A stretch of 32,000 bases of DNA. Source: Fibrobacter succinogenes subsp. succinogenes S85. GTDB lineage: Bacteria > Fibrobacterota > Fibrobacteria > Fibrobacterales > Fibrobacteraceae. Below are positions 3,064-19,036 of this stretch, in pieces. The notes below the pieces were generated by a model. That model saw nothing but the letters and a program-made list of their open reading frames with translations, ran no database searches and was not told the origin of the DNA. The stretch is from positions 690,001 through 722,000 of the forward strand of contig NC_017448.1 of NCBI RefSeq assembly GCF_000146505.1, given 5' to 3'. The first letter of the stretch is position 1. The number at the start of each line of letters is the position of its first letter. Position numbers and translations under genes: made by a program.

Positions 3064-4301
3064 ATCAACCTCTCTTTAAATTTTCGAACAACATCTTCAA
3101 CCGCATCGTGAAGCAAATTTTGCTTTTCGACCTTCGGCATTTTCACGGACTTTTCGAAAGCGCTTGTGAGCGTTTCGGCAGAGAGTTCATCCGCCGGAAT
3201 TTCAACGGCATAGCCCGCCTTCGACAAATCGTGAGCGAGGACAATCTGTTCAAACTGTCCTGGCGTCGGTACAAAGATACATTTTGCGCCAAGTTCCGCC
3301 ATGTCCATCACCGTGCTGTAACCGCCTCGGCTCACCACAAAATCGGCTCGTTTCACAGCTTCTGCAAAATCGTTCGTCGCCAAATGCGTATGGAACTCGA
3401 TATTTCCTTCAGTCCACGTTTTTTGCTCCGCCGAAGGCTTCCCGAGAATCATCATGTGGCGCCCAGGAATCTGCGCCAATGCATCACGCAGCTGCTGTTC
3501 GAACTGCGTACGTGCAGGCTCCACCCCCGATACAACCGCCACGACCTTGTAGTTTGCGCGCATTTCAAAAGAGTGGTTTCCAGAAGTACGCTTTTCAGGA
3601 GCAGCGTCCCATTCTACATTCGCCGAGTGCGCCATAAACTCCGACATGCTCATCAAGTCCACCTCTCGTTCGAGGTCGACCGGCGCCGGCGCATTCCCAA
3701 GCGCGTTTCCATCATTCCCCATCTCCGAGAATCTCGAAAGCGTCCCGACGAAACGCATCGGCTTATCGCCTGGCGTCGCGCCCGAATGCGAAAGCGAGCC
3801 CGCATAGCCTGGATAAATTTCCAAATCCGGCACCCAGACTTCATCGAACTTGCGCATGATGTTCGCATGCCACATCACGCCAATGCGTTCAAACGCAGCA
3901 AAAGCCCGCGGGAACGCAATCCTGCGTTGGTGCGTCATGTAAATGCTAAGCGCCTTCTTGGAATAAAATGCGAATCGGTTGTCCGAAAACAGCACATCGT
4001 AGCCGTGGCGTTTTACCATCTCTTCGGCAAAGTGGTGTTCGTAACGCATCACGGCATTCAGGTGCATGCTGTTCTTGAGCAGCCAAAGCGCCATGTTGTA
4101 GCCGTGCTTCGGGTAGACAATGTTGTAGCTCGGCGCCAAGCGCTGTCGCAAATCCGGGAATACTTCACGGAAAAAATTGGCGTTCGCCTTGACTACCGCC
4201 AGTTCCACCTCGGCACCCGCCCGCAAGAATTCGCGGACAACAGGCACGCAACGAGTCGCATGCCCAAGTCCCCAATCAAGCGGCGCTACAAGGACTTTCA
4301 C
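3060..4301 (-). CDS. GT-B fold glycosyltransferase (MurG/UDP-glycosyltransferase-like)
   Basis: The 413-aa ORF starts VLVAPLDWGLGHATRC (Gly-rich loop plus His). The C-terminal half has SRGGYSTVMDMAELG, typical of GT1/GT28-like enzymes. Its GTG start overlaps the upstream stop (GTGA 4298-4301). Confidence 0.75.
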   Translation of the reverse strand: MKVLVAPLDWGLGHATRCVPVVREFLRAGAEVELAVVKANANFFREVFPDLRQRLAPSYNIVYPKHGYNMALWLLKNSMHLNAVMRYEHHFAEEMVKRHGYDVLFSDNRFAFYSKKALSIYMTHQRRIAFPRAFAAFERIGVMWHANIMRKFDEVWVPDLEIYPGYAGSLSHSGATPGDKPMRFVGTLSRFSEMGNDGNALGNAPAPVDLEREVDLMSMSEFMAHSANVEWDAAPEKRTSGNHSFEMRANYKVVAVVSGVEPARTQFEQQLRDALAQIPGRHMMILGKPSAEQKTWTEGNIEFHTHLATNDFAEAVKRADFVVSRGGYSTVMDMAELGAKCIFVPTPGQFEQIVLAHDLSKAGYAVEIPADELSAETLTSAFEKSVKMPKVEKQNLLHDAVEDVVRKFKERLI

Positions 4302-6838
4302 TTTTCAGCCTCAAGCCAGGCATGAGCCCAGTCGCCGTGGTCGCAGTCCTTGTCGTTGCCCATCAACACGCGCAAATTAATCGACTTTGCGCCCTTGATA
4401 TTGAGTCTCAGGCGTTCCTTGTCTGTCGTATAAAGTTTCTTGGAATGGTAAATTTCACGACCATCCGCTTCAACGGCAAAGTAGGCTCCATCGCCACAGG
4501 CACTTTCGTCATCAAGGCCAATGACCACGTTCAGCCAATCGTAACCGCGAGAAAGCGGGAATTCAATCGCCGAATTGGCATGACTACCGATACCATAGCG
4601 GAACGGTTCACCGTCAATCGTAATCTTGTGATGATCCACAGTCTCGTTCATCTGCGGTTCGCCCCATTCCTGGAAGAACTTGCCCATCTTGAGCTTCGAG
4701 AGGAGCGCCACATTTTCACCCTCGACAAAGAAGTCGCGGTACGTCACAAGCGTATCTTCGTCCGGCATGTAGCAGCTCAGCACAACGCGGTTCAAGCCCG
4801 CACGAATCTTGGCAGAATCGAGTTGCAGCGTGTCAGCGCTTTGCGACACGAGCATTTCGCCCTGGTCCTTGTCGTTCACCTTGTAATCGCAGGCAATCGA
4901 TTCCGGGAAGCGCTTGTTCACGACAATCATGCCGTTCGTTTCTTCGCTCACCATGAAGTTCTGCGCATAATGCGACACACCCTTCTTCGAGATAATCTTG
5001 TAAATAGCAAGGCCATAACCGAAAAGACGGGCTTCCATCAGCACGCGTTCGTTCTTGTAATCGCTCAGGATATCATCAATCTGGTCGGTCGTCTTGAAGC
5101 CCACCACACGGCTATTGCGATTCACCTTGCCGTAGCCATCCTGGCCGCGCACAAGATAAATATTGCCTCCAGACTTTTGCATCCATTCAGCAAACTTTTC
5201 GGTGCTCCAGCTCTTAAAGGAACTTTCGCTAAACGAAGTATGGCCCGATGCCAGCATCTGCCACGGTCTTGCGTAAATGAACACGGAATTCTTCGGATAC
5301 TTCGCCAGTTCCGTATTCAAGAAGTCTTCTTCGGCCAAGAGCTTGTTCTTGTAATAGAGCATGTTCGCCTTGTAGCTCGGGGCATGGTAAAGCATGAGCC
5401 CGATAGACAAAAGGCAAGCAAACCCCGCCACAATCTTTGCAGCAGCATCGCTCTTCATCTTCGTCGTAAACACGAGTGCATCGTAAAGGCCGAGCGCCAT
5501 CAAGAGCGCAAACAGCGGGAGCGCCACAAGCACATAGCGCTGGTTGATATCAATCGTAAACGTTCCAGACACGTTCAGGAGAATCACAAAAATCTGCACG
5601 CAGAACGTGATGCCCAAGATAAATCCGCGCACGTAACGGCGAGAGTAAATCATGCGGAACAGGAGCCAAACCGTTGCCAAAAGCAAAATCACGGTAAACG
5701 TCGTGTAGAACGGATTTTCCATGATACCGCCAAAAGCAGAATCCGGCTTGAGATTCATCATGACTTCGATGTTCGTCTTGAGGTTGAACCACAAGTTTTC
5801 AAAAGAGTGCGCCGCATGCGTACCACCCTGGAAGTCGTACCCACGATAAGCAGCCATCGTGTTGATCGAAGGCCAGCTCACTGCAATCACCGACGCCACA
5901 AAGGCTGGCAAACGGTACGGCTTTTCAAGGAAGTAACGGTAATAGTAAAGCGCAAACGGGATAAACGCAAATACAGTTTCCTGGCGGGTCTGCGCAAAGA
6001 ATCCAAGCAGCGGAACCGTCAAGAGGAAATGCTTCCACGTGACCTTGTTCGTCGGCACAAACGCGTACCACGCCATAAGCACTGCAAGCAAGAGGATGTA
6101 GAGGACTTCGGTCGATGCGGAGCGCGACTGCAACAGGTAAATCGGCATGCCGCCCAAGAACGCCGTCGCCGCAAGCGCAAGCTTATCGCTCTTGAACCAC
6201 TTGCTAAGCGCAAGGAAGAACGCAATCAAGCTCAAGATGTAGAACGGATAGTTCACCATCAGCGCAGAATCGCGATTCGGTTCCATGAAGTTGAACACAA
6301 GCGAATAGACAAAGCCTAGCGCCTTGCCCTTGAAGTTGTTCACTTCGGTCTTGCAATCGAGAACGCCATCTGTCCAGACGCCTTCGTTACAGACACCGCC
6401 CGTGTGCTGGAAATACATCTGGAGGCCCATCGATTCCCAGCTCGTCTCGTCACTCAAGACACGGTGCGTATTGCCGATGTTCCCGAAAATGAACACCGAG
6501 AACACGATGAGCAAAAGGGCTAGCCCACAAAAGCTCTTGCCACTCGGCAAGAACCCGCGCACATGTTTAGCCACAAACGGAGCATTGACAACAACACCCG
6601 CCACGAGCAACAGGAACGTGGCAAGAATCGAGTAATACCCCCACTGGATATCCCAATGGCGCGCATACGGCACGGATAAATTGTTAAAGATAAGGAAAGC
6701 AGCCACGAGCACGAACATCGTAACCGCCAACATGATATTCTGAGGTTTATCCCAATGAAGGGAATTCTTCCATTCCATAAAGGACTGACGCAAAGACTTA
6801 GACTTTACACCGTCCCTTCCTAACGTTTCTTTTTTCAT
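4298..6838 (-). CDS. GT-C (PMT/ArnT-like) integral-membrane glycosyltransferase fused to a C-terminal NPCBM-like carbohydrate-binding domain
   Basis: The 846-aa ORF has about 500 N-terminal residues with 10 or more hydrophobic helices. It carries a DE motif in the first loop (VLSDETSWE), as in GT39/GT83 enzymes. The last ~150 aa (GIGSHANSAIEFPL...VIGLDDESACGDG...DHGDWAHAWLE) fit the NPCBM/NEW2 pattern. Confidence 0.7.
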   Translation of the reverse strand: MKKETLGRDGVKSKSLRQSFMEWKNSLHWDKPQNIMLAVTMFVLVAAFLIFNNLSVPYARHWDIQWGYYSILATFLLLVAGVVVNAPFVAKHVRGFLPSGKSFCGLALLLIVFSVFIFGNIGNTHRVLSDETSWESMGLQMYFQHTGGVCNEGVWTDGVLDCKTEVNNFKGKALGFVYSLVFNFMEPNRDSALMVNYPFYILSLIAFFLALSKWFKSDKLALAATAFLGGMPIYLLQSRSASTEVLYILLLAVLMAWYAFVPTNKVTWKHFLLTVPLLGFFAQTRQETVFAFIPFALYYYRYFLEKPYRLPAFVASVIAVSWPSINTMAAYRGYDFQGGTHAAHSFENLWFNLKTNIEVMMNLKPDSAFGGIMENPFYTTFTVILLLATVWLLFRMIYSRRYVRGFILGITFCVQIFVILLNVSGTFTIDINQRYVLVALPLFALLMALGLYDALVFTTKMKSDAAAKIVAGFACLLSIGLMLYHAPSYKANMLYYKNKLLAEEDFLNTELAKYPKNSVFIYARPWQMLASGHTSFSESSFKSWSTEKFAEWMQKSGGNIYLVRGQDGYGKVNRNSRVVGFKTTDQIDDILSDYKNERVLMEARLFGYGLAIYKIISKKGVSHYAQNFMVSEETNGMIVVNKRFPESIACDYKVNDKDQGEMLVSQSADTLQLDSAKIRAGLNRVVLSCYMPDEDTLVTYRDFFVEGENVALLSKLKMGKFFQEWGEPQMNETVDHHKITIDGEPFRYGIGSHANSAIEFPLSRGYDWLNVVIGLDDESACGDGAYFAVEADGREIYHSKKLYTTDKERLRLNIKGAKSINLRVLMGNDKDCDHGDWAHAWLEAEK

Positions 6839-7694: not shown

Positions 7695-8545
7695 ACATTC
7701 GTAAGCATTGGAAAAATCTTTTACTCACGACCACCGCCTTTTTCTGGGCGGGGTGTAATGGCGATAGCGTCACGGAATCAGGTTGCCCATGCTACAACGG
7801 TTCTGGGATAAGTTCCGAAGCATCAAGTTCCAGCGAAAGCGTTGAGAGCTCTAGTTCTAGCGAAGCCGTTGCATCATCAAGTTCCGAGTCGGCAAGCTCC
7901 AGTAGCGCAAACGGATCCAGTTCCAGCGAAGTGACATGCGCGCCAGGTGATTCGCTCGTATCGTATTACCCGCCGAGCTATTCAGCCGATATTGCCAAGA
8001 TGAACGCTGAAGAAAAAGCAAAGCACGCAAGCGTTAGCAAAATCGACAGCATTTCAAATACATTGCAAACGGTTCCGCAATGTCTCGCCGATTTGCGCCA
8101 GGAACTCAACATGTTTGTTGCGCTATACGGCGCCCCGATGAAGTTCAACAAAAACGAAGTTTGCAGCGATGGCACCACCCGCCCCACACAGGAATACCTT
8201 GATTACCTGAAAATGAAAGAGGAATGGGAAAGGAACAAACCCGCACTTGACGCAGAATGCCAAAAGATTTACGAAGACAAGTTGAAAGAAATCGAGCAGA
8301 CCATCAAAGAATGCATTGCAACATCAAACCCCAACACGGATTTGACCGTTTGCGATTTTGACGCCATGTGCCCCGAATACGGTGTAGATTCAAAATGCAC
8401 TTACAAATACACCTGCAATGACGGAGTCACCTGCCGCAGAACCGAAGGCGAAACCAATATGGTTTGCACCGACAAGCAAGGCGAAAAAACAACCTACACA
8501 AAAAAAGATTTCGACAAGAAATATTACACCAAAGAAAATTATTAG
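7691..8545 (+). CDS. Cys-rich lipoprotein, paralog B (long Ser/Glu-rich linker)
   Basis: The ATG overlaps the stop of A (ATGA 7691-7694). The leader is MNIRKHWKNLLLTTTAFFWAGC. A ~45-aa Ser/Glu low-complexity linker follows. The C-terminus has a CPEYGVD...YTCNDGVTC...TDKQGEKTTYTKKDF module homologous to the C-terminus of A. Confidence 0.85.
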   Translation: MNIRKHWKNLLLTTTAFFWAGCNGDSVTESGCPCYNGSGISSEASSSSESVESSSSSEAVASSSSESASSSSANGSSSSEVTCAPGDSLVSYYPPSYSADIAKMNAEEKAKHASVSKIDSISNTLQTVPQCLADLRQELNMFVALYGAPMKFNKNEVCSDGTTRPTQEYLDYLKMKEEWERNKPALDAECQKIYEDKLKEIEQTIKECIATSNPNTDLTVCDFDAMCPEYGVDSKCTYKYTCNDGVTCRRTEGETNMVCTDKQGEKTTYTKKDFDKKYYTKENY

Positions 8546-8560
8546 TTTTACCACCTAATC

Positions 8561-8965
8561 ATGTTATACAAACACTGGAAAAAATTTTTTCTTTCGGTAC
8601 TCGCACTTTTCTGGAGCGGGTGTGAAAACGAGGACGACGCAGTCGCTAGTTATGGATGTTTCCCGACCCAATGCTACAACACTACGGCCACAAACGATTT
8701 AGGAGAAGTCTTTGATATCATCGAATGCGATGATGGATACAAATACCTAAGACAATCGGGGATTTATTACGAACATCCAGAATTGCAAGAAAAATTACCT
8801 GAGGGCGTTGAAGCAATAACTCCTCCAGCAGGTTCTTGTGGAGCAAGTAACTGCACAAACAAAGGTCCTGATTACTGCTACAAGGAATCTAAAAAAACAT
8901 TAGAAGGTACGACGCAAGAATACGAAGTTTGCGTCCCCTCCATCGACTGCCCTGAGAAACACTAA
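8561..8965 (+). CDS. Cys-rich lipoprotein, paralog C (short form)
   Basis: The 134-aa ORF has the leader MLYKHWKKFFLSVLALFWSGC, a YGCFP motif 11 aa after the lipobox Cys, an ECDDG module and 8 further Cys. Confidence 0.8.
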   Translation: MLYKHWKKFFLSVLALFWSGCENEDDAVASYGCFPTQCYNTTATNDLGEVFDIIECDDGYKYLRQSGIYYEHPELQEKLPEGVEAITPPAGSCGASNCTNKGPDYCYKESKKTLEGTTQEYEVCVPSIDCPEKH

Positions 8966-8986
8966 CCTTTTCTACCACCTATTATT

Positions 8987-10063
8987 ATGCAACTTTCGCT
9001 TAAAAAGAAACTCGCTCTCGAAGCTTATCGTCTTTACCGCCACAACGAAATCAAGGCACACCCGCTCACATACTTTTTCTGGGAATGCACACTCCGCTGC
9101 AACTTGCACTGTTTGCACTGCGGTAGCGACTGCGTCAAGGACGCCATCCCCGATATGCCCCGCGAAGACTTTATGGCCGTGCTCGACAAGCTCACCCCGC
9201 ACATTGACCCGAAGCACTTTATCGTGGTGATTACCGGCGGCGAACCGCTCATGCGCCCGGACCTCGAAGAATGTGGCCAAGAAATCAAGAAGCGCGGCTA
9301 CCCCTGGGGCATGGTCACGAACGGTCTTGCAATGACTCCCGAGCGCTACACGCGCCTTTTGAACGCAGGGCTCCGCTCGCTCACCATCAGCCTCGATGGT
9401 CTCGAAGCAAGCCACAACCATTTCCGTGGCGACCCGCATAGTTTTGAACGAGCCCTCCGCGCCATCGACATGGCGGCCCACACGCAAGGACTCACCTTCG
9501 ACGTGATGACCTGTGTGAACCGCGAAAACCTCAAGGAACTCCCGAAAATCTTGGACATGCTTTTGAAAATCGGTGTGAAGCGCTGGCGCGTTGCGACCGT
9601 ATTCCCCAAAGGCCGCGCCAAGGACAATCCGCTGTTCCAACTTACGAACCAGGAATTCCGCCAAGTGTTCGACTTTATCCGCGAAGTAAAATCGATGAAC
9701 GTCATCAACGTGAATTACGGCTGCGAAGGATTCCTCGGCAGCTACGAGAAAGACGCACGCAATTACCCGTTCTTCTGCCGCGCAGGCGTAAACGTCTCTT
9801 CCGTGCTCTGCGACGGAAGTATCTCGGCTTGCCCGAGCTTGCGCGGCGACTACATCCAAGGAAACATCTACAAGGACGACATTTGGGACGTGTGGCAGAA
9901 CCGCTACCAAGTGATGCGCGACCGCAGTTGGGCAAAAATCGGCGACTGCAAGACCTGCAAGTACTGGCGCTACTGCGAAGGCTCCAGCCTGCACCTCAGA
10001 GACGAGAAAACAAAAGAGCTCGCCTACTGCCATGTGCAGCGATTAGAGGCTGCTGGGGCATAA
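8987..10063 (+). CDS. radical SAM enzyme with SPASM/twitch-type C-terminal Cys cluster
   Basis: The 358-aa ORF has CNLHCLHC (C-x3-C-x2-C), GGEPLM and TNG motifs. The C-terminus has CRAG-x9-C...C and CKTCKYWRYC (C-x2-C-x5-C). It lies 21 nt after lipoprotein C. Confidence 0.88.
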   Translation: MQLSLKKKLALEAYRLYRHNEIKAHPLTYFFWECTLRCNLHCLHCGSDCVKDAIPDMPREDFMAVLDKLTPHIDPKHFIVVITGGEPLMRPDLEECGQEIKKRGYPWGMVTNGLAMTPERYTRLLNAGLRSLTISLDGLEASHNHFRGDPHSFERALRAIDMAAHTQGLTFDVMTCVNRENLKELPKILDMLLKIGVKRWRVATVFPKGRAKDNPLFQLTNQEFRQVFDFIREVKSMNVINVNYGCEGFLGSYEKDARNYPFFCRAGVNVSSVLCDGSISACPSLRGDYIQGNIYKDDIWDVWQNRYQVMRDRSWAKIGDCKTCKYWRYCEGSSLHLRDEKTKELAYCHVQRLEAAGA

Positions 10064-10102
10064 TATTACAATGTCTCCCCGTCCCCATAACCAATAAAAA
10101 CA

Positions 10103-10135
10103 AAAGACGCCCGATCCAAAGAACCGAGCGTCTTT
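10103..10135. terminator. bidirectional hairpin between convergent genes
   Basis: aaagacgc (10103-10110) pairs with gcgtcttt (10128-10135). It is A-rich upstream and T-containing downstream. It sits between the radical SAM stop (10063) and the minus-strand lipoprotein stop (10157). Confidence 0.5.
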
Positions 10136-10156
10136 CAATTTCAAACGTATTCCGAA

Positions 10157-11059
10157 TTACTTGGCTTCGAAATAGTAAGTCTGGAGAGTCTTTCCGTCCT
10201 GGGAGAGCTGGATAATCTGCTTGCCCTTCGGGAGGTTGCCAGAAATCTTGTAGAGGTTTTCAGCAACGTATTCGACCTTGAGATCGGTTGCCTTGTCCTT
10301 GACCGGGAACACGCCCTTCGTTTCGCCTGCGCCAAAGCCCTTGCAGTCCTTGTGAGAAGCGATCGGAGCGACGACAGCCGGATAGGTCTTAGCAGTGATT
10401 GCGGTAGACACGGAAGAAGAGTTGTGGTAGAACACTTCGAGTTTGCCTTCGACGACTCGCGGATCCGGGAGGTTCGTCACAGCAGCTGCGACCTGAGCGA
10501 CCGGAGCGGCCTTCCTAGCCTTCTTGCCCTTCTTGCCTTTCTTCTTGACACCAATCTTTTCAGCAAGGCTTGCCTTTGCATCACCAGCCTGCTGCTGCGG
10601 CATAGTCAAGCGGTAACCAGCAATGGATTCATCGCAGTTCGTGGAGTAGACAACCCACTTGTTATCGATCTTGAGCGGGCCTTCCGGAGTACCCTGGTAC
10701 AGACCCGGATCAACCTGGGCGCTGTAAATGTAAAGAATGAGAGAAGCGTTCGGATTCTGTTCCGTCGTTTCAATCTTCATACGGGTCTTCACGTACTTGG
10801 AACGACCTGCATAAACTCTATAAGCGCCAACCGGAACCTTGACGAACTTGAACTTGCCCTTGCGGAGTTCCTGGTTGAATTCGTACTTCTTGGAAAGAGT
10901 GGTGTAAATCGTGGAGTCCATACCGACGGTCGGCATTTCCAACGGCTTGTTGGTGAAAGCATCACGAACTTCACCTTCGATGGTACCAGTCTTACCGTTA
11001 TCGCAACCAGTCATAGCAAGAGCGATGATGGCAGCGGCACAAATGCTAAGTTTTTTCAT
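10157..11059 (-). CDS. lipoprotein with N-terminal carboxypeptidase-regulatory-like fold and a Lys-rich insert
   Basis: The 300-aa ORF has the signal/lipobox MKKLSICAAAIIALAMTGC. The segment GTIEGEVRDAFTNKPL resembles the start of a CarboxypepD_reg-like beta-sandwich. It has an internal KKKGKKGKKARKAAP tract and a GAGGAC SD upstream. Confidence 0.7.
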   Translation of the reverse strand: MKKLSICAAAIIALAMTGCDNGKTGTIEGEVRDAFTNKPLEMPTVGMDSTIYTTLSKKYEFNQELRKGKFKFVKVPVGAYRVYAGRSKYVKTRMKIETTEQNPNASLILYIYSAQVDPGLYQGTPEGPLKIDNKWVVYSTNCDESIAGYRLTMPQQQAGDAKASLAEKIGVKKKGKKGKKARKAAPVAQVAAAVTNLPDPRVVEGKLEVFYHNSSSVSTAITAKTYPAVVAPIASHKDCKGFGAGETKGVFPVKDKATDLKVEYVAENLYKISGNLPKGKQIIQLSQDGKTLQTYYFEAK

Positions 11060-11079
11060 TTTGCGTCCTCAGGGTTAAA

Positions 11080-11109
11080 TAAGAGAAAAGCCTCCCTAGT
11101 TAGGGAGGC
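11080..11109 (-). terminator. rho-independent terminator after L31
   Basis: A perfect 9-bp stem gcctcccta/tagggaggc (11090-11109) is followed on the minus strand by TTTTCTCTT. Confidence 0.7.
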
Positions 11110-11126
11110 CCCAAAATTTAAGAAGA

Positions 11127-11399
11127 TTAAGCTTCTTCTTCAGCCTTGACCGGAGCAGCCTTGCGAGTCTTACGCTTTGCAGAGGTGATGTTAGCACCGC
11201 CGCCATAGCGCTTGTTGAAGCTGTCGATACGGCCAGCCGTATCCACGCGATGCTGCTTGCCCGTCCAGAACGGATGGGTATCAGCAGTGATTTCCAAGGA
11301 AATCACGTTATATTCAACACCATCGATAGTCTTCTTTTCGGCGGAAGACTTCGTGGAGCGGGTGATGTATTCTTTACCCGTATTCGCATCGACGAACAC
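11127..11399 (-). CDS. rpmE: 50S ribosomal protein L31, Cys-less type B. Coordinates run from the first canonical start (GTG), but homology continues upstream to 11432.
   Basis: The motifs ITRST...HPFWTGKQ...VDTAGRIDSFNKRYG are L31 hallmarks. No CxxC pairs are present, so it is type B. Upstream in-frame codons encode KEGIHPNYQPV (the L31 N-terminus), but no start codon sits at the expected place (see findings). Confidence 0.8.
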   Translation of the reverse strand: MFVDANTGKEYITRSTKSSAEKKTIDGVEYNVISLEITADTHPFWTGKQHRVDTAGRIDSFNKRYGGGANITSAKRKTRKAAPVKAEEEA

Positions 11400-11532
11400 G
11401 ACCGGTTGATAATTAGGGTGGATACCTTCTTTATTATAAAACTTCCTGTGAAGTAATTGTTGAGAGCCTAAAATTTAGTTGTTTTTTAGGATTTTGGCAA
11501 GTTGCAACCTCATTTTTAGTATTTTTTATAGC

Positions 11533-12117
11533 ATGAAATCTTTATTGTTGCTCAGTTCTTTGCTTTTGATTGCCTGTGGAAACGACCACCCGACTGCCAA
11601 AATTGTCGAGGTGAACAAGCGCATGGTGCTCGAAGAATGGCCTGACAGCAACTACATCGCCTCGCTGGACTCCATTTTGAAGCTCGAACCGGTCAAAAAA
11701 GGCAAAGATACCGCCGACGTGAGCCTCAAGATGAACGCATTCAAGGCGCCGACATTCAAGCTCCCGCCGTCCGTCACCGGGAAGAGCACTAGCCGCAAAT
11801 CCGGGCTGAGCAAACCGCCGAAACAGGTCAAGCAAGCTGCAGAAGCCTCCAAGCCGAGCAACAACGCAGAAAATTTCGTCGCCAAGTTCTCGAACGCGCT
11901 CTCCGCCTTGCAGTCCGACCCCTCGAACAAGGGTCTTTACAAGGTCGTTACCGCTAACGACGGCGAAGACCTGTTCAAGCTCCTCCGCAGAACGTATGGC
12001 GCAGGCACACAGAACCTCCCCCGCTTCTACGTGCTTTCGGCCCTCCAGTCCGTGAACCCGGGCGTCATGCTCGAGCACCTCAACGCCGGCGACAAAGTCC
12101 GCGTTCCGCGACTATAG
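11533..12117 (+). CDS. lipoprotein with C-terminal LysM-like domain
   Basis: I chose the internal ATG at 11533, which gives MKSLLLLSSLLLIAC (signal plus lipobox). The C-terminal YKVVTANDGEDLFKLLRRTYG...LNAGDKVRVP fits the LysM pattern. The track ORF start at 11479 adds a non-signal extension. Confidence 0.7.
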   Translation: MKSLLLLSSLLLIACGNDHPTAKIVEVNKRMVLEEWPDSNYIASLDSILKLEPVKKGKDTADVSLKMNAFKAPTFKLPPSVTGKSTSRKSGLSKPPKQVKQAAEASKPSNNAENFVAKFSNALSALQSDPSNKGLYKVVTANDGEDLFKLLRRTYGAGTQNLPRFYVLSALQSVNPGVMLEHLNAGDKVRVPRL

Positions 12118-12199
12118 TTTTGCTTTTTTCAAAAGCATTTTTCTAGAACAGCGTCTTCACACCGAAACCTAGCACACCGTCTAGGTAATCGCACATATT
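12118..12199. repeat. diverged direct repeat of 12361-12442 (3' end plus downstream hairpin of the Omp85-family gene)
   Basis: By-eye alignment shows about 82 nt at about 85-88% identity, offset by exactly 243 bp. It includes the hairpin gctttt-ttc-aaaagc. Confidence 0.85.
12143..12199 (-). pseudogene. orphan 3' fragment of an Omp85-family gene (encodes ...NMCDYLDGVLGFGVKTLF*)
   Basis: Minus-strand translation gives the identical last 16 residues of the intact gene ending at 12386. The frame is closed by a TAG at 12233-12235, and there is no start or N-terminal part. Confidence 0.75.
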
Positions 12200-12385
12200 G
12201 GATGCAATTATTATTGCTGTTAGTGAGATGTTCTATAAAAAAGAACCGAATGATTAACAGAGTGAGAACATAGCGTCGGCCAAGGATGGGGAGGGTGCAG
12301 GGAGGGGCCCGTGCGGCCTTCGCAACTCCGAGCTGGGGCCCCGCCCGCATGACGTACTTTTTTTGCTTTTTTCAAAAGCTTTTTT

Positions 12386-13771
12386 CTAGAACAGCGTCTT
12401 CACACCAAAGCCAAGCACACCGTCCAAATAATCGCACCCATTGCGGAGCGCATAGTAAATGCTAAAGCTCCAGGACTTGCGGTACTGCGTAAACCCGATA
12501 CCATAATCGTGTTCACTAGCCCACCCGTGGAACGGCTTCATCCGCCTATAAAGCCCCGGCTGGAAGAAAAGCTCAATCGACAAATCGTAGCCATCCTGCC
12601 ATAAGAACGCGGCCTGCGAAAAACCGTACGCCCGCGTCCGCATAAAACCATACATCATCCCCTTGAACGAGTTGATGCCTCCCAGACTAAACAAGTCCTC
12701 ACGCGCAAACGCACCACCCGACGGGAGCATAGCGCCAGCCGCCGCTGAATACCGCACAATAAAGTTCTTCCACAGCGGCAAATAATACACAAGCGACGAC
12801 TGCAGACGCAAATAGCTATCGAGTGAATCCGGGCGATCCATCATCCACGCAAGCGACAAATCCACCGACATTCCGCTTCGAGGCAAAACGCTCCGGTCAA
12901 ACGAAATGTATGAAAGTTCCAGCGTTGAACTTTTCTCGTCATTGCCAATGCCCACAAACGCAGCAACATCAAAGCTAAAGCCAATGTTCCGCGACACGCC
13001 CAGTTCCAGCCGCGAATTGCGTGACAGCGAATCGTCCTCAAAGAATCCTCGCACAACGACATCCCATGACGTTCCAAAGATAAACCGTTCGCGATACAAG
13101 CCTTCCAACCGGCGGGAATCACTCTGCGAATAGCCTTCCATCTGCAAATCGCGCCCAGTCCCCAAGATGTTGTACAAGTCAAGATTGATCTTACCTTCCC
13201 AGACATTATCATCGCTCGAATACGTGAGGAAACCTTCCGCCGCAGAAATCGGGACCGCCCGCATGGAATACGCCGGTATAATGCGGTTGCGCACCGGATC
13301 GCGGAACAAGCGCACATCGGCGGTCTTCTCGTAATAGCCCAATCGCGCCATCTTGCGTTCAGAACGTTCCAAATCCGAAAGCGAAACTTTTCCACCAAGT
13401 TCAAGCCCCGTCAAACGCGCAAAGACATCGACATCGGTCGCCCCGGAATCAAGATTTTCCGGTCTTGCCCACACCCATGCGCTACCACGTACAAACTCGC
13501 AACGCATGACGCCAGCACTGTCCACAGCCACCTGCAATTTTGCCCCAAGGAATCCCTTATCCTCGTAATACCGCAACAATTTCTGTTTTGCGCCACGCCA
13601 GGAATCACAAGGCGCCCCGACAACATCATTCATCGAGAGTTCTTCAAATTCGCTATGGTCACCCACCCATTCCACACGCACAATACGGCATTCTGAGGCA
13701 CAGCACAAAACCGCACCCAACAAGAGTACCGCCACAACGCAGAACAAAGTATTTTGCCACCACAACTTCAT
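12386..13771 (-). CDS. Omp85/BamA-family outer-membrane protein (POTRA plus surface-antigen barrel)
   Basis: The 461-aa ORF has a signal peptide. A POTRA-like N-terminal part (YYEDKGFLGAKL) is followed by the barrel start NLDLYNILGTGRDL typical of D15/Omp85 proteins. The C-terminal residue is Phe. The start lies 1 nt after the upstream stop. Confidence 0.75.
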   Translation of the reverse strand: MKLWWQNTLFCVVAVLLLGAVLCCASECRIVRVEWVGDHSEFEELSMNDVVGAPCDSWRGAKQKLLRYYEDKGFLGAKLQVAVDSAGVMRCEFVRGSAWVWARPENLDSGATDVDVFARLTGLELGGKVSLSDLERSERKMARLGYYEKTADVRLFRDPVRNRIIPAYSMRAVPISAAEGFLTYSSDDNVWEGKINLDLYNILGTGRDLQMEGYSQSDSRRLEGLYRERFIFGTSWDVVVRGFFEDDSLSRNSRLELGVSRNIGFSFDVAAFVGIGNDEKSSTLELSYISFDRSVLPRSGMSVDLSLAWMMDRPDSLDSYLRLQSSLVYYLPLWKNFIVRYSAAAGAMLPSGGAFAREDLFSLGGINSFKGMMYGFMRTRAYGFSQAAFLWQDGYDLSIELFFQPGLYRRMKPFHGWASEHDYGIGFTQYRKSWSFSIYYALRNGCDYLDGVLGFGVKTLF

Positions 13772-13772
13772 A

Positions 13773-16667
13773 CTAGAAAAACGCCTTCGCCTCGCTCGTC
13801 AGTTTTTGGAACACGTTTTCCTCGGCATCGCCGAAGCGTAAAATATACCGGAGCGAAAACGACAAGAAATGGTTCACCTCCACCGACACCATCGTCTCAA
13901 GCCTGTACGTCACCCCATTACCAAAACCGGACATCATCTGGTATGGGATAGCACCTTCATGCGTATCCATCTGGATTGAAGCAAACGAAACATGCGCATC
14001 GACAACGCCCTCTTTCTCATAACCGACACGGAGTTCCTCTTCCCAGAGATGTGCCCCAAAAGATTCTTCCATATCATCTTCGCCAGAGCCTTCCCTGTAG
14101 CGCACACGCGGCGAGAGGCTAAAGCCTGCCGGCAATTTCCAAGTGTATCGGCCCGTAATTTCCCAGATATTCCAGTCCAGTTTTTGTAGCGCCGTCAAAT
14201 GAACTTTTTCAAAAGTGTTATCGACACCCACGTAATGACTCTCATTTATATTAAAACTGGCTCTAAGACTATGGTCAAACATGTCCTGGAAATAACCGAT
14301 CGAAGACATCTTCTTTTCATAGCTCGCACTCGGATTGTACGATGCCGAGATTCCCGACGGATGGTCCCACGCAAGGCTAGCATCCCACGAAACCGTTCCC
14401 GCCGTCATGCGACGCAACGCCGCCGAATAAACCGGAGGGAAATAAATCTTCTCGCCCGTCGTATCCTCGGCTTCGGAATGGTACGATGCACTCAACGTGA
14501 TATCGCGCAGCAACCCCTGATTAACGCCAAGCGAAACGCCCGGATTCCATTCCAGTGAAGCTTCAAAAGATGCATTCGACGAAAGTACAGCCCCTACAGA
14601 ATCGTTACGGCCCATGCCTTCATAGACAAAATCACCATTATCCACGCCCTCGATAAACGTTCCCGTAAGGCTATCGTAACGCACATCGCCCGTTCCCTTC
14701 GCCACCGCCTTGTAAATCGCCGTATAAGTCTGCTCCGATGTCATCCCGAAACGGTAAGCAATCGAGCCCTGCACACCCATATCGTCATCACCAAAATTTG
14801 TCGTCAAGTCCCCCACCCAGGAATCCGAAGCGCCCAGCGAATCCGTCACCGCATGGGAATATTGCAACAAGTGCGACAGACTGAAGTTATGGAAATTAGC
14901 CTCTGCCGACTGCGTCCACGTCACAAGATTCACGGAATCGCGCCAACCCTCGCGACGAGAAAGCCCATCCGCGCGATCCGTCAAATCGTGTTTGCGCACG
15001 GTGAGCGTCCCGACCGATTCCTTCACGTTCCACAAGTCATCGTTCAAAGTCGCCCCAACGGCAGTCTTTGCATAACCACGCTCCGACTTATACCCCAACG
15101 AATCGCGCACAGAATAGCGCACATCGCCACTGCCAAACGGCCTAAAGAATCCACGCAAGAATTCCGAGGAGAACGTTCCCTGATAACGCTTCTGTTCCAC
15201 CTCTTGCGCACTTGAAACATACGAAGCCGTAAATTCGCTTTTCGCGTCCAGACCGCGATGCACAAGCGACAACTGCGATCGCGAAGAATTCCAGCGTTCA
15301 TCATCGCCACGACGGTATCCCCACTTCGCTGTACCAAACCAGTCCTTGCCCAAGCGGATACGGAGCGCAAGTTCATCATAGCGCAAATCGCCACTCAGTT
15401 TTGCACTGTCCAAATCCCACTCGTTACGGAGCGCATACGCATCCCAATCCCTATCGCGCCCGCCAAATTCAGATATCGCAAAACCTTCCTGAACGTAATT
15501 GCCATAGACCGAAAGCGCAACCGGGAACGTATTCATGTTCTGCGTTGAGTCCGTCGTCACATACCACCTAAACGCACGACCACTCGGCCCACCAACATTT
15601 TTTGAGACCGTATTGGAATCCATGCGATTTAAGCCCAGTTCCACATCGGCGTAAAAACGGTGTTCCGCCTGCAAGCGAAGACGAGCCCCCAAGCGTTCCG
15701 ACATTTTTGGGCGGTGCAAATCCTGATTCAGCGAATCCTTCAATTCCCCGCCACGGTCATTTTTCAAACGTTCATAATCCGCACTGTCTAGCGTACTTTT
15801 ACGCATGCGGTCCACATCATTTTCCAAGTGGAATCCGGACACGTCAAAGAAAACATTTTCAAAACGCAGACTTCCACGAGCCGCGTACATCGTGTAAATA
15901 TCGTCATTCAAGTACGCATCGTATTCCACAAAAACTTCATCATCTGAGCCAGGGATAATCCCGTTCTTAAAGTCCAAAAGGCCACCGGCATAATTCACCT
16001 CGTAATCACGATTACGCACAAGTTCTACGCCATTCAACCAAACTCGTTCGGAATTCGGTACAACAGAAACAAACGATCCCGATTCATCCAGATGGTATCC
16101 ATCGCGCTGTCCCTGCACACCGCTAAACGAGCGCGAATAACGAGTCACCTCGTCCGTACCCCATGCCCCGCTCACCTCGGAACCGCGATAACGCAACGTC
16201 GCCATAGCCCCTAGCGTTGAACGGCTGAACGACGTAAACGCCATGGAATTATCGGTCCACGTAAAATCTCCCAAGTGAAGCATCGCATACGGAGACTCCA
16301 CACGGAAATAAATCTGGTCCACATCCTGGAGAGTTGCGGTTGTCTGGTCTCCCGCCTTGCGGTCCACATCAGACAAAAGAGCATCAATATAAACGCTATC
16401 GGCAAGGCGCCCCTGAATTGAGAGCCGCAGTTCCTGATCAACCTGCGTACCGCCATCGCCCACAGTCACCTGCATCGTCTTGTAACCGTGCGTTTCAATT
16501 TCTGCACGCGAAGAATCTTCAGCCTGCGCGCTATTCAAAGCTGCGCCCGGCGCATTTTCCAAAGCATTTTTTGCAAGAATTGAAGGATCCCAAACCGGGA
16601 GCGAATCCACATCCAAAGCAAAGGCTAAGCTGGCAAACAGCAGGCCCAGACAAGGAATAGACCGCAT
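13773..16667 (-). CDS. large predicted outer-membrane beta-barrel protein, function unknown
   Basis: The 964-aa ORF has the signal peptide MRSIPCLGLLFASLAFA. Alternating-hydrophobicity, Gly/Tyr/Ser/Asp-rich segments run throughout. The C-terminal ...EAKAFF is an OMP beta-signal with terminal Phe. Confidence 0.65.
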   Translation of the reverse strand: MRSIPCLGLLFASLAFALDVDSLPVWDPSILAKNALENAPGAALNSAQAEDSSRAEIETHGYKTMQVTVGDGGTQVDQELRLSIQGRLADSVYIDALLSDVDRKAGDQTTATLQDVDQIYFRVESPYAMLHLGDFTWTDNSMAFTSFSRSTLGAMATLRYRGSEVSGAWGTDEVTRYSRSFSGVQGQRDGYHLDESGSFVSVVPNSERVWLNGVELVRNRDYEVNYAGGLLDFKNGIIPGSDDEVFVEYDAYLNDDIYTMYAARGSLRFENVFFDVSGFHLENDVDRMRKSTLDSADYERLKNDRGGELKDSLNQDLHRPKMSERLGARLRLQAEHRFYADVELGLNRMDSNTVSKNVGGPSGRAFRWYVTTDSTQNMNTFPVALSVYGNYVQEGFAISEFGGRDRDWDAYALRNEWDLDSAKLSGDLRYDELALRIRLGKDWFGTAKWGYRRGDDERWNSSRSQLSLVHRGLDAKSEFTASYVSSAQEVEQKRYQGTFSSEFLRGFFRPFGSGDVRYSVRDSLGYKSERGYAKTAVGATLNDDLWNVKESVGTLTVRKHDLTDRADGLSRREGWRDSVNLVTWTQSAEANFHNFSLSHLLQYSHAVTDSLGASDSWVGDLTTNFGDDDMGVQGSIAYRFGMTSEQTYTAIYKAVAKGTGDVRYDSLTGTFIEGVDNGDFVYEGMGRNDSVGAVLSSNASFEASLEWNPGVSLGVNQGLLRDITLSASYHSEAEDTTGEKIYFPPVYSAALRRMTAGTVSWDASLAWDHPSGISASYNPSASYEKKMSSIGYFQDMFDHSLRASFNINESHYVGVDNTFEKVHLTALQKLDWNIWEITGRYTWKLPAGFSLSPRVRYREGSGEDDMEESFGAHLWEEELRVGYEKEGVVDAHVSFASIQMDTHEGAIPYQMMSGFGNGVTYRLETMVSVEVNHFLSFSLRYILRFGDAEENVFQKLTSEAKAFF

Positions 16668-16673
16668 ACAAAA

Positions 16674-17147
16674 CTACCGGGAAGGCGTCACCACGCGAAA
16701 CTGCCTACTGGCAAGCAACTTGCGACCCGCCACCAAATCGACACTCCATTCGCCAAGTTCGACCAGGTCCGAAGCGAGCATCGAGCTACACACATCGCCT
16801 GTGAGGTTGCAAGTTTCAACAAATATCGTATCAATTCCCAAGAACCAGATATGGACAAGGGTGTCTTCCTGGTAACGTGCAGAATTTGTAATAGACGAAA
16901 AAACGTAAAGTCTCGTGTTCTCTTCGAACACGCTATCGGAACCAAATGGTTCCCCATTCACAATGTGGCGGCAGACAACGCTATTTGCCGGAGAAAGTTC
17001 AATGTCGGAATTATCCGTAAAGTTGACTTCGTCATCGATGAAGAACATGACAAATCGGTGTACAAAGAAACCAAGAAAGACGACTATCGCCAAGACAGTC
17101 GTCTTACGCAAATTTCTCAGTGGCGGAAACTTGCCTGCCACAAGCAC
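16674..17147 (-). CDS. single-pass membrane-anchored small protein (periplasmic domain, possibly DUF2914-like)
   Basis: The 157-aa ORF has one N-terminal TM helix (TTVLAIVVFLGFFVHRFVMFFI). The start is GTG at 17147, or GTG at 17141, which has better spacing to the TAGGAG. It begins 3 nt after the mglB stop. The domain assignment is from memory only. Confidence 0.6.
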   Translation of the reverse strand: MLVAGKFPPLRNLRKTTVLAIVVFLGFFVHRFVMFFIDDEVNFTDNSDIELSPANSVVCRHIVNGEPFGSDSVFEENTRLYVFSSITNSARYQEDTLVHIWFLGIDTIFVETCNLTGDVCSSMLASDLVELGEWSVDLVAGRKLLASRQFRVVTPSR

Positions 17148-17150
17148 CTC

Positions 17151-17576
17151 CTAGCGAACGAGACTGCTCGTATTCTGCGTGAACGCAGGAACGGCGTCCT
17201 CTAGCTTTTCAACCAGCAAACGGTTAAAGTCGTCAATGCGGTTCGGGAGCCTGCCCCCGTTAAACACCTGCACAAGCAGGAGCGACCTGTCCACAGGAGA
17301 AATATAAACGGAACGGTTCTCGCCCGTAAAAGAAACGGACTGGAACTTTTCGCCACCGAGCATCACGCCAATCTGGCGCGAGGAATCAAATGCAGCGATA
17401 CTCAATACCGCAAGAGGAGTAGCATCGAGATCAGAGCCGAGGGAACCGACTTCCGCAATGATATTTCCATCGCGATGGCAAAGAACAACATATTCGCACT
17501 TGACACTTGCCTGATAAGCAGACATCAAGCGACGCACTTTGTTAGCATCATCAGAATAAATTGTATAATCGCTCAT
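17151..17576 (-). CDS. mglB: Roadblock/LC7-family protein (MglB-like GAP partner)
   Basis: I chose the ATG at 17576 (MSDYTIY...), giving about 141 aa with a Roadblock/LC7-like pattern. It begins 24 nt downstream of mglA. The track start at 17588 is TTG. Confidence 0.7.
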   Translation of the reverse strand: MSDYTIYSDDANKVRRLMSAYQASVKCEYVVLCHRDGNIIAEVGSLGSDLDATPLAVLSIAAFDSSRQIGVMLGGEKFQSVSFTGENRSVYISPVDRSLLLVQVFNGGRLPNRIDDFNRLLVEKLEDAVPAFTQNTSSLVR

Positions 17577-17600
17577 ATAACACCACAAACATTTATAAAA

Positions 17601-18542
17601 CTATTTGTCTTTCGGCTTGTACGGACGCAAGACAATTTCATCGTCATCCGTCTGCGTCGGTTTTTCTACAGCCCGGCCAAAGGTCGGCATTCTAGGAACG
17701 GCAGTCGCCACACGCGGGCGAGCAAACGGCGAAGACATGGCACCCTTCTGGAACAAGCCAGAACCGGCACCGCCGGAGTTCGACATATTAGCCTGCGGTT
17801 TTGCGGCAAACGACGGCATGCGGAACGGGGAGGTCGGCTGCTGCGGAGCGGCAGATTCGTTCTGCGGTTTGCCCGCATCGGCATTTTGAGCCGGAGCATC
17901 ACTTGCAGTCGGAGCTGCTGCGGCAGCATTTACAGCGGCCTTACGCAAGAACCCCTGTTTGACGTTAAACTTTTCAATCACCAACATAGCGATCGTCTTA
18001 AGCGTTGTCACGACGCCCTTACCGTTATGGGCTGTCGCCGGGAAGAACTGGATTTTCTTGTCTGGATTGAGCATTTCATTCATCTCATCCAGAGTAAAGA
18101 CGTTGTCCATATCGCGCTTGTTGTACTGCAACACGAATGGGATATCGTCCAAGTTCATGCCATAGTCCTGCAAGTTTTGGCGCAGGTTCTGGAGGCTTTC
18201 CAAGTTTTCGGCCTGACGGGAACGTTGGGAGTCCGCTACAAAGACAATCCCATCGACACCGCGAAGAACGAGCTTACGCGTACTGTTGTAGTAAACCTGA
18301 CCAGGAACGGTATAAAGCTGGAAGCGGGTCTTAAAACCCTTGATGTCGCCCAAGTTCAAAGGCAAAAAGTCAAAGAACAAGGTTCTATCACCTTCTGTAG
18401 CAAGCGAGACCATGTCCGTTCGCTTGTCTTGGGGCATTTTCTGATGGATAACCTGAAGATTTGTGGTTTTACCACTTAAACCAGGACCATAATAAACGAC
18501 CTTACAACTAATTTCTCTTGTAGCAAAATTAATAGACGACAT
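17601..18542 (-). CDS. mglA: MglA-type Ras-like GTPase with a ~120-aa low-complexity C-terminal extension
   Basis: I chose the ATG at 18542 with an AAGGAA SD. The N-terminal ~195 aa align by eye almost continuously with Myxococcus MglA. Shared elements are MSxINxxxREIxCKxVYYGPGLxGKTTNL, DRTLFFDFLP, GFKTRFxLYTVPGQV, VFVADSQ and QYNKRD. The tail is Ala/Pro/Gln-rich. Confidence 0.88.
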   Translation of the reverse strand: MSSINFATREISCKVVYYGPGLSGKTTNLQVIHQKMPQDKRTDMVSLATEGDRTLFFDFLPLNLGDIKGFKTRFQLYTVPGQVYYNSTRKLVLRGVDGIVFVADSQRSRQAENLESLQNLRQNLQDYGMNLDDIPFVLQYNKRDMDNVFTLDEMNEMLNPDKKIQFFPATAHNGKGVVTTLKTIAMLVIEKFNVKQGFLRKAAVNAAAAAPTASDAPAQNADAGKPQNESAAPQQPTSPFRMPSFAAKPQANMSNSGGAGSGLFQKGAMSSPFARPRVATAVPRMPTFGRAVEKPTQTDDDEIVLRPYKPKDK

Positions 18543-18710
18543 TATAATTCCTTGAAACCCAGTACTTAATCTAGTAAAAAAGTTCATTAAACCAAAAAGA
18601 ATTTTTTGATTTTTGCCCTTTTTTAATCAAAATCACAATTTTTTCGTCTACAAGCAGAGGAAATATCCCCCAAGAAACCACCTGCCGTATTTCTTTCAAA
18701 AGTTCAGGAT

Positions 18711-18744
18711 AACAAAACAGACCGATACACAATAGTATATCGGT
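18711..18744 (-). terminator. rho-independent terminator of rpsT
   Basis: The stem accgata (18721-18727) / tatcggt (18738-18744) is followed on the minus strand by CTGTTTTGTT. Confidence 0.6.
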
Positions 18745-18775: not shown

Positions 18776-19036
18776 TTAAGCGAGGCCGTTGATGACCTTA
18801 GCAACCTTGGCCTTGTAGTTGGCAGCACGGTTGGCGCAGAAACCAGCGCGGTGAGAAACGGCAGCCTTATCGAGCATGCTGAAGAGCTTCGGCATTTCTT
18901 CGAGGGCAGCAGCTTTCGTAGCAGCAGTGCGGATAACCTTGAGGCTGGCACGGATAGCGCTACGAGTGGAACGGTTCATTGCGTTGGCCTTTTCGGCCTG
19001 GAGCAAACGCTTTTTGCAAGACTTGTGTTGAGGCAC
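18776..19036 (-). CDS. rpsT: 30S ribosomal protein S20
   Basis: The 86-aa basic protein begins (M)PQHKSCKKRLLQAEKANAMNRS and ends ...AANYKAKVAKVINGLA, typical of S20. It has a GTG start with a GGAGAA SD 7 nt upstream. Confidence 0.9.
   Translation of the reverse strand: MPQHKSCKKRLLQAEKANAMNRSTRSAIRASLKVIRTAATKAAALEEMPKLFSMLDKAAVSHRAGFCANRAANYKAKVAKVINGLA

Follow-up and report, generated by a model that had tools for sequence, protein, structure and literature searches.

Within a 32,000-nucleotide (nt) stretch of the Fibrobacter succinogenes subsp. succinogenes S85 genome (NC_017448.1, positions 690,001 to 722,000 of the forward strand; "the window"), five minus-strand genes, FSU_0634 to FSU_0630 (Fisuc_0227 to Fisuc_0223 in the second locus-tag series), constitute a conserved, co-expressed Fibrobacterota operon that joins an intact MglA/MglB pair to a three-protein envelope module. 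Among bacterial Ras-like polarity switches MglA/MglB has been studied best, and in Myxococcus xanthus MglA-GTP recruits and activates envelope-spanning motility machines; almost all that is known of the outputs of the switch comes from Myxococcus, with its effectors scattered in the genome. An initial annotation of this DNA, made from the letters alone, had suggested an undescribed GTPase-regulated surface machine for adhesion, gliding-like movement, vesiculation or secretion, and the searchable literature gave no description of MglA/MglB joined to these envelope genes, nor any description of FSU_0630 to FSU_0634 beyond table entries (expression, peptide detection). The genes and their main parts are listed here in window coordinates, with p157 and p964 standing for proteins of 157 and 964 amino acids (aa).

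18542 to 17601, minus strand: mglA, start placed according to homologue N-termini within the longest open reading frame (ORF), 17601-18587
17970-18542, minus strand: MglA G domain, residues 1-191, with P-loop, Arg53, Thr78, Gln82 and NKRD
17604-17969, minus strand: MglA C-terminal tail, residues 192-313, low-complexity, disordered and Ala/Pro/Gln-rich
17604-17648, minus strand: terminal motif of the MglA tail, DDDEIVLRPYKPKDK, from the alignment of orthologues
17151-17576, minus strand: mglB, whose ATG at 17576 fits the MSDF/YxIY start of its homologues
16674-17147, minus strand: p157, GTG start
17031-17105, minus strand: p157 transmembrane (TM) helix, residues 15-39, from the AlphaFold model
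16689-16985, minus strand: p157 periplasmic Ig-like β-sandwich, residues 55-153 (~100 aa), from the AlphaFold model
13773-16667, minus strand: p964, 964 aa
15918-16079, minus strand: p964 insert domain, residues 197-250, matching TIGR04189 (SprA) at profile positions 600-652 (E 1.9e-4)
12386-13771, minus strand: Omp85-like gene, 461 aa

The gene order is mglA-mglB-p157-p964-omp85, with intergenic gaps, computed from ORF coordinates, of 24, 3, 6 and 1 nt in 5' to 3' gene order. The ORF list agrees with the five tightly spaced minus-strand genes originally described, and the starts at 18542 and 17576 fit the homologues. Because homologues of mglA all begin MSSINF, 18542 is the likely start of that gene; an alternative ATG lies at 18587, 15 codons earlier (MNFFTRLSTGFQGII-), and a 334-aa ORF on the opposite strand (17475-18479) that overlaps mglA is probably spurious. 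By exact-sequence look-up MglA is FSU_0634, p964 is FSU_0631 and the Omp85-like protein is FSU_0630; mglB is annotated 'putative mglB protein'.

Gene-neighbourhood analysis, proposed in the initial annotation as a check on the operon, bears out its conservation. In a pattern scan with one genome per species that yielded 60 loci, all from Fibrobacter, Fibrobacteraceae or Fibrobacteria, the five-gene order and its tiny gaps are kept in 60 of 60 wherever the contig allows, at identities down to 40% for p964 and 33% for the Omp85 protein. We also examined the genomic context of thirteen distant p964 relatives, and six lineages deeper still, whose identity is 23-31%, retain the cluster whole (L061, L063/L064, L066, L067, L068 and L072). 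No exception to the order appears in more than 130 loci, with p964 identity reaching down to 23%. The flanks vary: L011, L012, L018, L042, L043 and L054 have no rpsT or degT upstream, and the downstream genes differ, so that the five-gene block moves as a unit while its flanks change. In S85 rpsT is retained and the next gene upstream, which is divergently oriented, encodes a DegT-type aminotransferase; other Fibrobacter clades have neither rpsT nor degT within 6 kb of the operon, and in L061, L063, L067, L068 and L072 an M50-like peptidase gene followed by rpsT stands upstream of mglA.

The deepest lineages show some variation of content. An extra small gene stands between the p157-like and barrel genes in L068 (5544-6011, 155 aa) and in L072 (5696-6019, 107 aa), the two having no detectable relation to each other (BLASTP E 0.047), and the final gene of L072, 420 aa long, has no Omp85-profile match, yet ends in a β-signal-like ...GVSNKF. 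In a Fibrobacterales metagenome-assembled genome (MAG; L069), the p157-like, barrel and Omp85 genes occur without MglA/MglB, and only barrel and Omp85 are found in L070, which groups with Fibrobacterota, and in a soil-metagenome contig (L065). The Flavobacterium relatives of p964 and two others (L071, L073) are lone genes, or lie on contigs too short for neighbours. Since the envelope genes occur elsewhere without MglA/MglB, the switch is an added layer and not an obligatory part; the barrel/Omp85 pair thus represents the ancestral unit, to which MglA/MglB was added in a large part of the Fibrobacterota. In MAG RGIG8275 the cluster is present on two contigs (L040, L049) at 53-56% identity to the S85 barrel, which may reflect either a bin of mixed strains or a genuine second copy.

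The most diagnostic feature of the operon, absent from the initial annotation, is the motif that ends the MglA tail. Every MglA orthologue is tailed, with a total length of 294-351 aa against ~195 aa for classical MglA, and the tail carries repeated SPF and RMP(S/T)F motifs before closing with a family consensus of an acidic patch followed by E-I-(E/V)-L-(R/K)-P-Y-(V/I/K)-P-K. The core of this motif is invariant across all aligned loci, L066 included, and is also present in the distant L068 and L072. When metagenomes were scanned with a DNA pattern for ELRPY(V/I)PKK, 80 loci were retrieved, mostly from rumen Fibrobacter. There, 71 pattern matches lie at the ends of MglA genes, and downstream of the motif-bearing mglA, where the contig suffices, we find mglB in 64 of 64 cases, p157 in 60 of 60, p964 in 51 of 51 and omp85 in 26 of 26; 6 loci without a match to any of the five genes are taken as chance. 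Within this metagenome sample the tail motif is diagnostic of the five-gene operon.

Expression follows the same grouping. RNA-seq over 14 chemostat conditions assigns all five to the constitutive 'cluster 1' (Neumann 2018, PMC6204037, Table S2), and in the data of that table their pairwise correlations (r) range from 0.48 to 0.91, with rpsT anticorrelated. The mean rlog along the operon is 11.4, 9.5, 8.0, 8.2 and 6.8. A ~4-fold drop in mRNA falls between mglA and mglB, over a 24-nt gap without an obvious hairpin, and attenuation, processing or differential stability are candidate causes of the gradient. The co-expression expected from the gene arrangement is thus borne out, and the data fit one transcript with attenuation, short of proving it. 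Among the products, MglA has been found in the envelope proteome at a level unchanged between cellulose and glucose (PMC6851124), and two low-scoring p964 peptides have been recorded in the membrane proteome (PMC4619616).

The similarity of residues 1-191 of FSU_0634 is highest to Thermus thermophilus MglA (3t12, E 1.4e-73), followed by M. xanthus MglA structures (2e-71), and the protein is ~60% identical to solved MglA structures. Its motifs comprise the P-loop GPGLSGKTT (19-27), EGDR53TLFF, YT78VPGQ82 and YNKRD, in which Thr78 replaces the Asp of the DxxGQ motif; its Pfam matches are Arf, Gtr1_RagA and Ras. Judged by G-domain similarity and the presence of all diagnostic residues, FSU_0634 is a Group 1 MglA, and with P-loop, Arg53, Gln82 and NKRD aligned to solved MglA the switch looks catalytically intact, as had been claimed for it. 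The second gene encodes a protein of 141 aa that matches Pfam Roadblock/LC7 (PF03259, 25.1 bits, cutoff 23) and, weakly, the NCBIfam MglB equivalog model (25.9 bits versus a cutoff of 200); all 8 of its matches in a search of the Protein Data Bank (PDB) are MglB, though weak (best E 0.0018). By these profile and structure-database matches it is a Roadblock/LC7 protein and probably a divergent MglB. Fremgen 2010 tabulated the 313-aa F. succinogenes MglA as 'MglA2', without an MglB partner; contrary to that table, the Roadblock gene lies 24 nt 3' of mglA.

The third protein is predicted to be a bitopic inner-membrane anchor with a periplasmic Ig-like domain. Its N-terminus is short and basic (PPLRNLRKTT), with ~14 cytoplasmic residues; the AlphaFold model (pLDDT 83) places a TM helix at residues 15-39, in accord with the membrane anchor read from the sequence earlier, and joins it through a disordered linker to the Ig-like domain, in which the alignment shows three conserved Cys and a GEWSVDL motif. 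No Pfam or NCBIfam family matches p157, and its own family of 153 members is entirely Fibrobacter-like. The best fold match is an uncharacterised Leptospira protein, 6oe6, with a TM-score of 0.58-0.70 when normalised to the target and 0.49-0.51 when normalised to p157, and the Ig-like PA1606 (3n6y) is a further match. With ~14 cytoplasmic residues and one ~100-aa Ig-like domain, p157 alone cannot be shown to bridge the envelope.

The fourth protein, p964, has a signal peptide and a C-terminal ...KAFF that closes the β-signal FQKLTSEAKAFF. An aromatic C-terminal β-signal is common to the whole p964 family, with the ending FQKLSxEAKAYF. From a 55-sequence alignment AlphaFold models p964 as ~44 long antiparallel β-strands (pLDDT 86.5, pTM 0.75), and Foldseek matches this model only to outer-membrane (OM) barrels (SusC, BtuB, LptD, SlpA, SprA) with a probability of ~1.0 and TM-scores of at most 0.25. 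The giant OM barrel proposed in the initial annotation is thus upheld at the level of the model: p964 looks like a giant all-β outer-membrane barrel, its single closure and strand count being model-derived, and it therefore looks barrel-like while its size class fits no solved architecture. Pfam gave no family for p964 or for nine distant relatives, and profile searches of the PDB gave no sequence relatives. When 1.84 billion representatives were scanned in full with HMMER, 776 p964 relatives emerged, themselves representatives at 50% identity, and 345 of them have E <=1e-10. Part of the SprA profile (602-686) is matched by 13 of 34 diverse family members, with a best E of 4.5e-10, and the likeness between p964 and SprA is a shared small domain and not orthology. 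We rejected p964 as a SprA orthologue, since one segment of 50-85 residues matches and the score is 18.7 bits against a cutoff of 200.

Relatives of p964 in Flavobacteriia, ~1130 aa long, are lone genes without nearby Omp85 or MglA and are annotated just as hypothetical or 'outer membrane beta-barrel'; in Flavobacterium magnum (L062, CP028811.1, locus 8001-11399) a 59-aa gene that matches PID_CTERM weakly comes after the barrel relative. We considered these Flavobacterium relatives as subunits of the Bacteroidota barrel assembly machinery (BAM) and rejected this on the described kinds of subunit, among which there is no giant barrel, BamG being a 14-strand FadL-type barrel and BamH, BamM and BamP lipoproteins or periplasmic proteins (PMC12611786).

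The last gene encodes a protein with a signal peptide and a C-terminal ...KTLF, named 'BamA/TamA family outer membrane protein' by NCBI. Its match to Pfam Omp85 (PF01103, 41.1 bits, cutoff 24) agrees with the family first given to it. The POTRA model PF07244 scores 20.2 bits, slightly below its cutoff of 21.3, over a conserved GF(P/L)xA POTRA-like segment; the protein probably has one or two POTRA-like domains, and it has a conserved C-terminal aromatic β-signal and, in the alignment, a conserved LGGxxSFKG(M/Y) as an L6-like motif in which SFKG replaces VRGF/Y. A PDB sequence search with FSU_0630 returned nothing meaningful. On these family matches it is a member of the Omp85 superfamily and a BamA/TamA-type paralogue, and it is no TpsB. 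As BamA itself it was rejected: it scores 53 bits against a cutoff of 297 for TIGR03303, is 461 aa long, has an altered L6 and departs from the five POTRA domains and VRGF/Y by which BamA is recognised.

The reading that we prefer, at a probability of roughly 45%, is that MglA-GTP, with its tail, p157 or both as tether, determines the place or time at which the barrel/Omp85 device assembles or acts, and that MglB resets it. The envelope trio would form an autonomous outer-membrane device in which the Omp85 paralogue serves as dedicated assembly factor or stable partner of the giant barrel, and the Ig-like domain of p157 may contact the periplasmic face of the barrel/Omp85 complex. In the MglA-linked lineages, MglA-GTP would be held at the membrane by the motifs of its tail, the basic N-terminus of p157 or both, and would set the place (a pole or a substrate-contact site) or the time of device assembly or activity until MglB resets it by stimulating GTP hydrolysis. 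The logic would be that of MglA-controlled focal-adhesion assembly in Myxococcus, with non-homologous envelope parts. In favour of this reading stand the gene anatomy and catalytic motifs, the conserved order and spacing of a block that moves as one, the invariant tail motif, the self-standing envelope-only versions, the p964 and p157 models, the co-expression, the proteome records of MglA and p964, and the recruitment of motility machines by MglA-GTP in M. xanthus.

Several observations weigh against this reading. Other lineages (L069, L070, L065) have envelope genes and no MglA/MglB beside them, and the M50-rpsT-mglA synteny of several deep lineages means that part of the conservation could be general regional synteny. 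Only ~14 residues of p157 are displayed to the cytoplasm, and its basic motif ahead of the TM helix recurs in the L069 version, which has no MglA, and is thus not MglA-specific. The mRNA drops ~25-fold from mglA to omp85, which fits a regulator with other, more abundant targets, and the one-barrel topology and strand number of p964 have the AlphaFold prediction as their one source. The claim that the switch is hard-wired to a trans-envelope set stands as a conserved five-gene block, and is weakened where the envelope genes dispense with MglA/MglB.

The main rival reading is co-transcription without physical coupling, in which MglA/MglB would act on type IV pili or a Glt/Agl-like core encoded elsewhere and the envelope trio would be a housekeeping OM unit that shares a constitutive promoter. 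An envelope pair or trio that exists without the switch, constitutive expression and a very unequal stoichiometry (mglA mRNA ~25 times that of omp85) all suit this explanation, as does the housekeeping context, which includes rpsT and an M50-like peptidase and, in L067 and L068, neighbouring LptD, Maf and RodZ-like genes. F. succinogenes moreover has Group B glt/agl genes, plausible MglA targets (Luciano 2011, PMC3169522), and the known MglA effectors are cytoplasmic. However, a five-gene order kept without exception in more than 130 loci down to 23% p964 identity, while the flanks change, is not readily expected of a shared promoter; gaps of 1-6 nt suggest translational coupling; and the tail motif is found only in the five-gene operon. 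We consider simple co-transcription somewhat unlikely.

A narrower role is that the Omp85 paralogue is the insertase of the barrel and that MglA/MglB and p157 merely mark the site or time of insertion (e.g. pole or septum), the barrel being independent of the switch thereafter. The barrel and Omp85 genes are strictly adjacent in all Fibrobacterota contexts examined, the Omp85 mRNA lies below that of the barrel, which fits a catalytic role, FSU_0630 keeps a POTRA-like domain and an L6-like motif, and giant barrels are demanding BAM substrates (cf. the Bacteroidota BAM elaborations, PMC12611786). But the L6 motif is altered (SFKG for VRGF/Y), the flavobacterial, L071 and L073 barrel relatives have no adjacent Omp85, and we know of no precedent for a cytoplasmic GTPase that directs OM protein insertion. 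This role appears decidedly improbable. Type Vb two-partner secretion, with p964 as a TpsA-like passenger secreted or surface-displayed via a TpsB-like FSU_0630, has in its favor that a large signal-peptide protein gene adjoins a short Omp85-family gene with few POTRA domains, but is scarcely credible when the Omp85 matches are to PF01103 and a BamA model with no ShlB/FhaC-type or POTRA_2 match, and when p964 lacks a TPS domain and β-helix, has a model of long antiparallel strands for which transmembrane barrels are the only matches, and shares a conserved aromatic β-signal with its whole family.

A bolder form of control by MglA-GTP would be a new GTPase-gated trans-envelope machine: the tail would dock MglA-GTP on p157 and so govern where a barrel of more than 40 strands, built by its own Omp85, sits or whether it opens, supplying the OM platform and regulator that the Fibrobacter Glt/Agl-like core otherwise lacks. 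We regard this form as distinctly unlikely. If it were true, p964 would be the largest single-chain outer-membrane barrel known, and a non-flagellated cellulose degrader would possess a focal-adhesion-like or export device at the contact between cell and substrate. The operon is in any case a compact, testable system for communication from a small GTPase to the outer membrane, in which the wiring of MglA/MglB is written into a single operon, in a whole phylum that is not known to glide. It also provides the first context for an un-annotated family of giant OM proteins and identifies a dedicated Omp85 paralogue for that family. For rumen biology it adds five constitutively expressed genes for envelope proteins and regulators, from the main cellulolytic bacterium; models of cellulose adhesion and degradation have so far left them out.

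Upstream, the operon boundary is the hairpin that follows rpsT:

18776-19036: rpsT, upstream neighbour
18721-18744, minus strand: terminator-like hairpin 3' of rpsT, a 10-pair stem followed by a T-run

This hairpin excepted, a scan for sigma-70 promoters and terminators gave matches no better than those in shuffled sequence, and Rfam found no RNA families between 11000 and 19500. On the downstream side a convergent gene, 11479-12117, ends at 12117. An 83-nt direct repeat (12118-12200 and 12361-12443; 89% identity, spacing 243 nt) occupies this junction, one copy taking in the last ~19 codons and stop of the Omp85-like gene together with ~25 nt 3' of it, the other lying just past the stop of the convergent gene, with ~160 nt between them that include a GC-rich stretch. 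The arrangement suggests either a small insertion that brought a segment duplication with it or a gene end that was copied and has since decayed. The remaining genes of the window belong to housekeeping and cell-envelope biosynthesis, and none is motility-related. Unrelated to the operon, the minus-strand gene at 4298-6838 encodes an 846-aa protein with a C-terminal NPCBM/NEW2 domain and adjoins a glycosyltransferase (3060-4301) and two family-less proteins.

Among known systems, the TamA/TamB translocation and assembly module (TAM) and BamA modules resemble the operon in that a BamA/TamA-type Omp85 shares it with an inner-membrane-anchored periplasmic protein. However, the third partner is here itself a giant barrel, the Ig-like p157, at 157 aa, is much too small to reach across the periplasm as TamB does, and FSU_0630 is short (461 aa), with one or two POTRA-like domains and an altered L6. 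We rejected identity with TAM, there being no TamB-like (DUF490/AsmA) match in the operon and p157 consisting of a TM helix and one Ig-like domain. SprA/Sov, the 36-strand translocon of the type IX secretion system, resembles p964, both being giant single-chain OM β-barrels (by prediction for p964) that occur in the FCB superphylum alone. Of all solved structures SprA has the highest TM-score to p964, though a poor one (0.25), and it shares one similar insert of 50-85 residues; with ~2300 aa SprA is more than twice as long as p964, a PDB sequence search with it finds no SprA chain, and where SprA has PorV, Plug, PPI and SprE as partners, p964 has an Omp85 paralogue and an Ig-like anchor.

On the side of the switch, Fremgen 2010 groups the F. 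succinogenes protein with SofG, an M. xanthus MglA paralogue with N- and C-terminal extensions, as 'MglA2', and gives it 119/192 identities (printed 58%) to M. xanthus MglA, against 44% for the M. xanthus MglA2 protein. The two share an MglA-like G domain with long extensions, but the Fibrobacter G domain is much nearer to classical MglA, and neither its tail motif nor its operon context is related to SofG. An MglA/MglB pair fixed by an operon to a membrane protein has a precedent in the actinobacterial conservon (CvnA-D), in which a Group 2 MglA and an MglB homologue share an operon with a membrane histidine kinase (Wuichet 2015); it differs in the MglA group, the sensor-kinase partner, the monoderm host and the lack of outer-membrane components. 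Neighbourhoods of Group 1 MglA vary widely (Wuichet and Søgaard-Andersen, the same paper).

The nearest comparison is with the MglA/MglB, Agl-Glt and type IV pilus systems of Myxococcus (also Bdellovibrio and Thermus), with which Fibrobacter shares the same Group 1 type of MglA and an adjacent Roadblock-type MglB. To our knowledge the Fibrobacter host does not glide, and the likeness to Agl-Glt lies in the proposed logic, a cytoplasmic GTPase that would govern a trans-envelope device. Judged by family matches and not by direct sequence comparison, no Fibrobacter envelope protein can be recognised as a Glt, Agl or pilus part, Omp85 being the sole match among the named Pfam and NCBIfam families. 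Unlike its Myxococcus counterpart, the Fibrobacter MglA bears a disordered tail of 100-150 aa with a conserved terminal motif, and mglA-mglB stands with three envelope genes in one operon.

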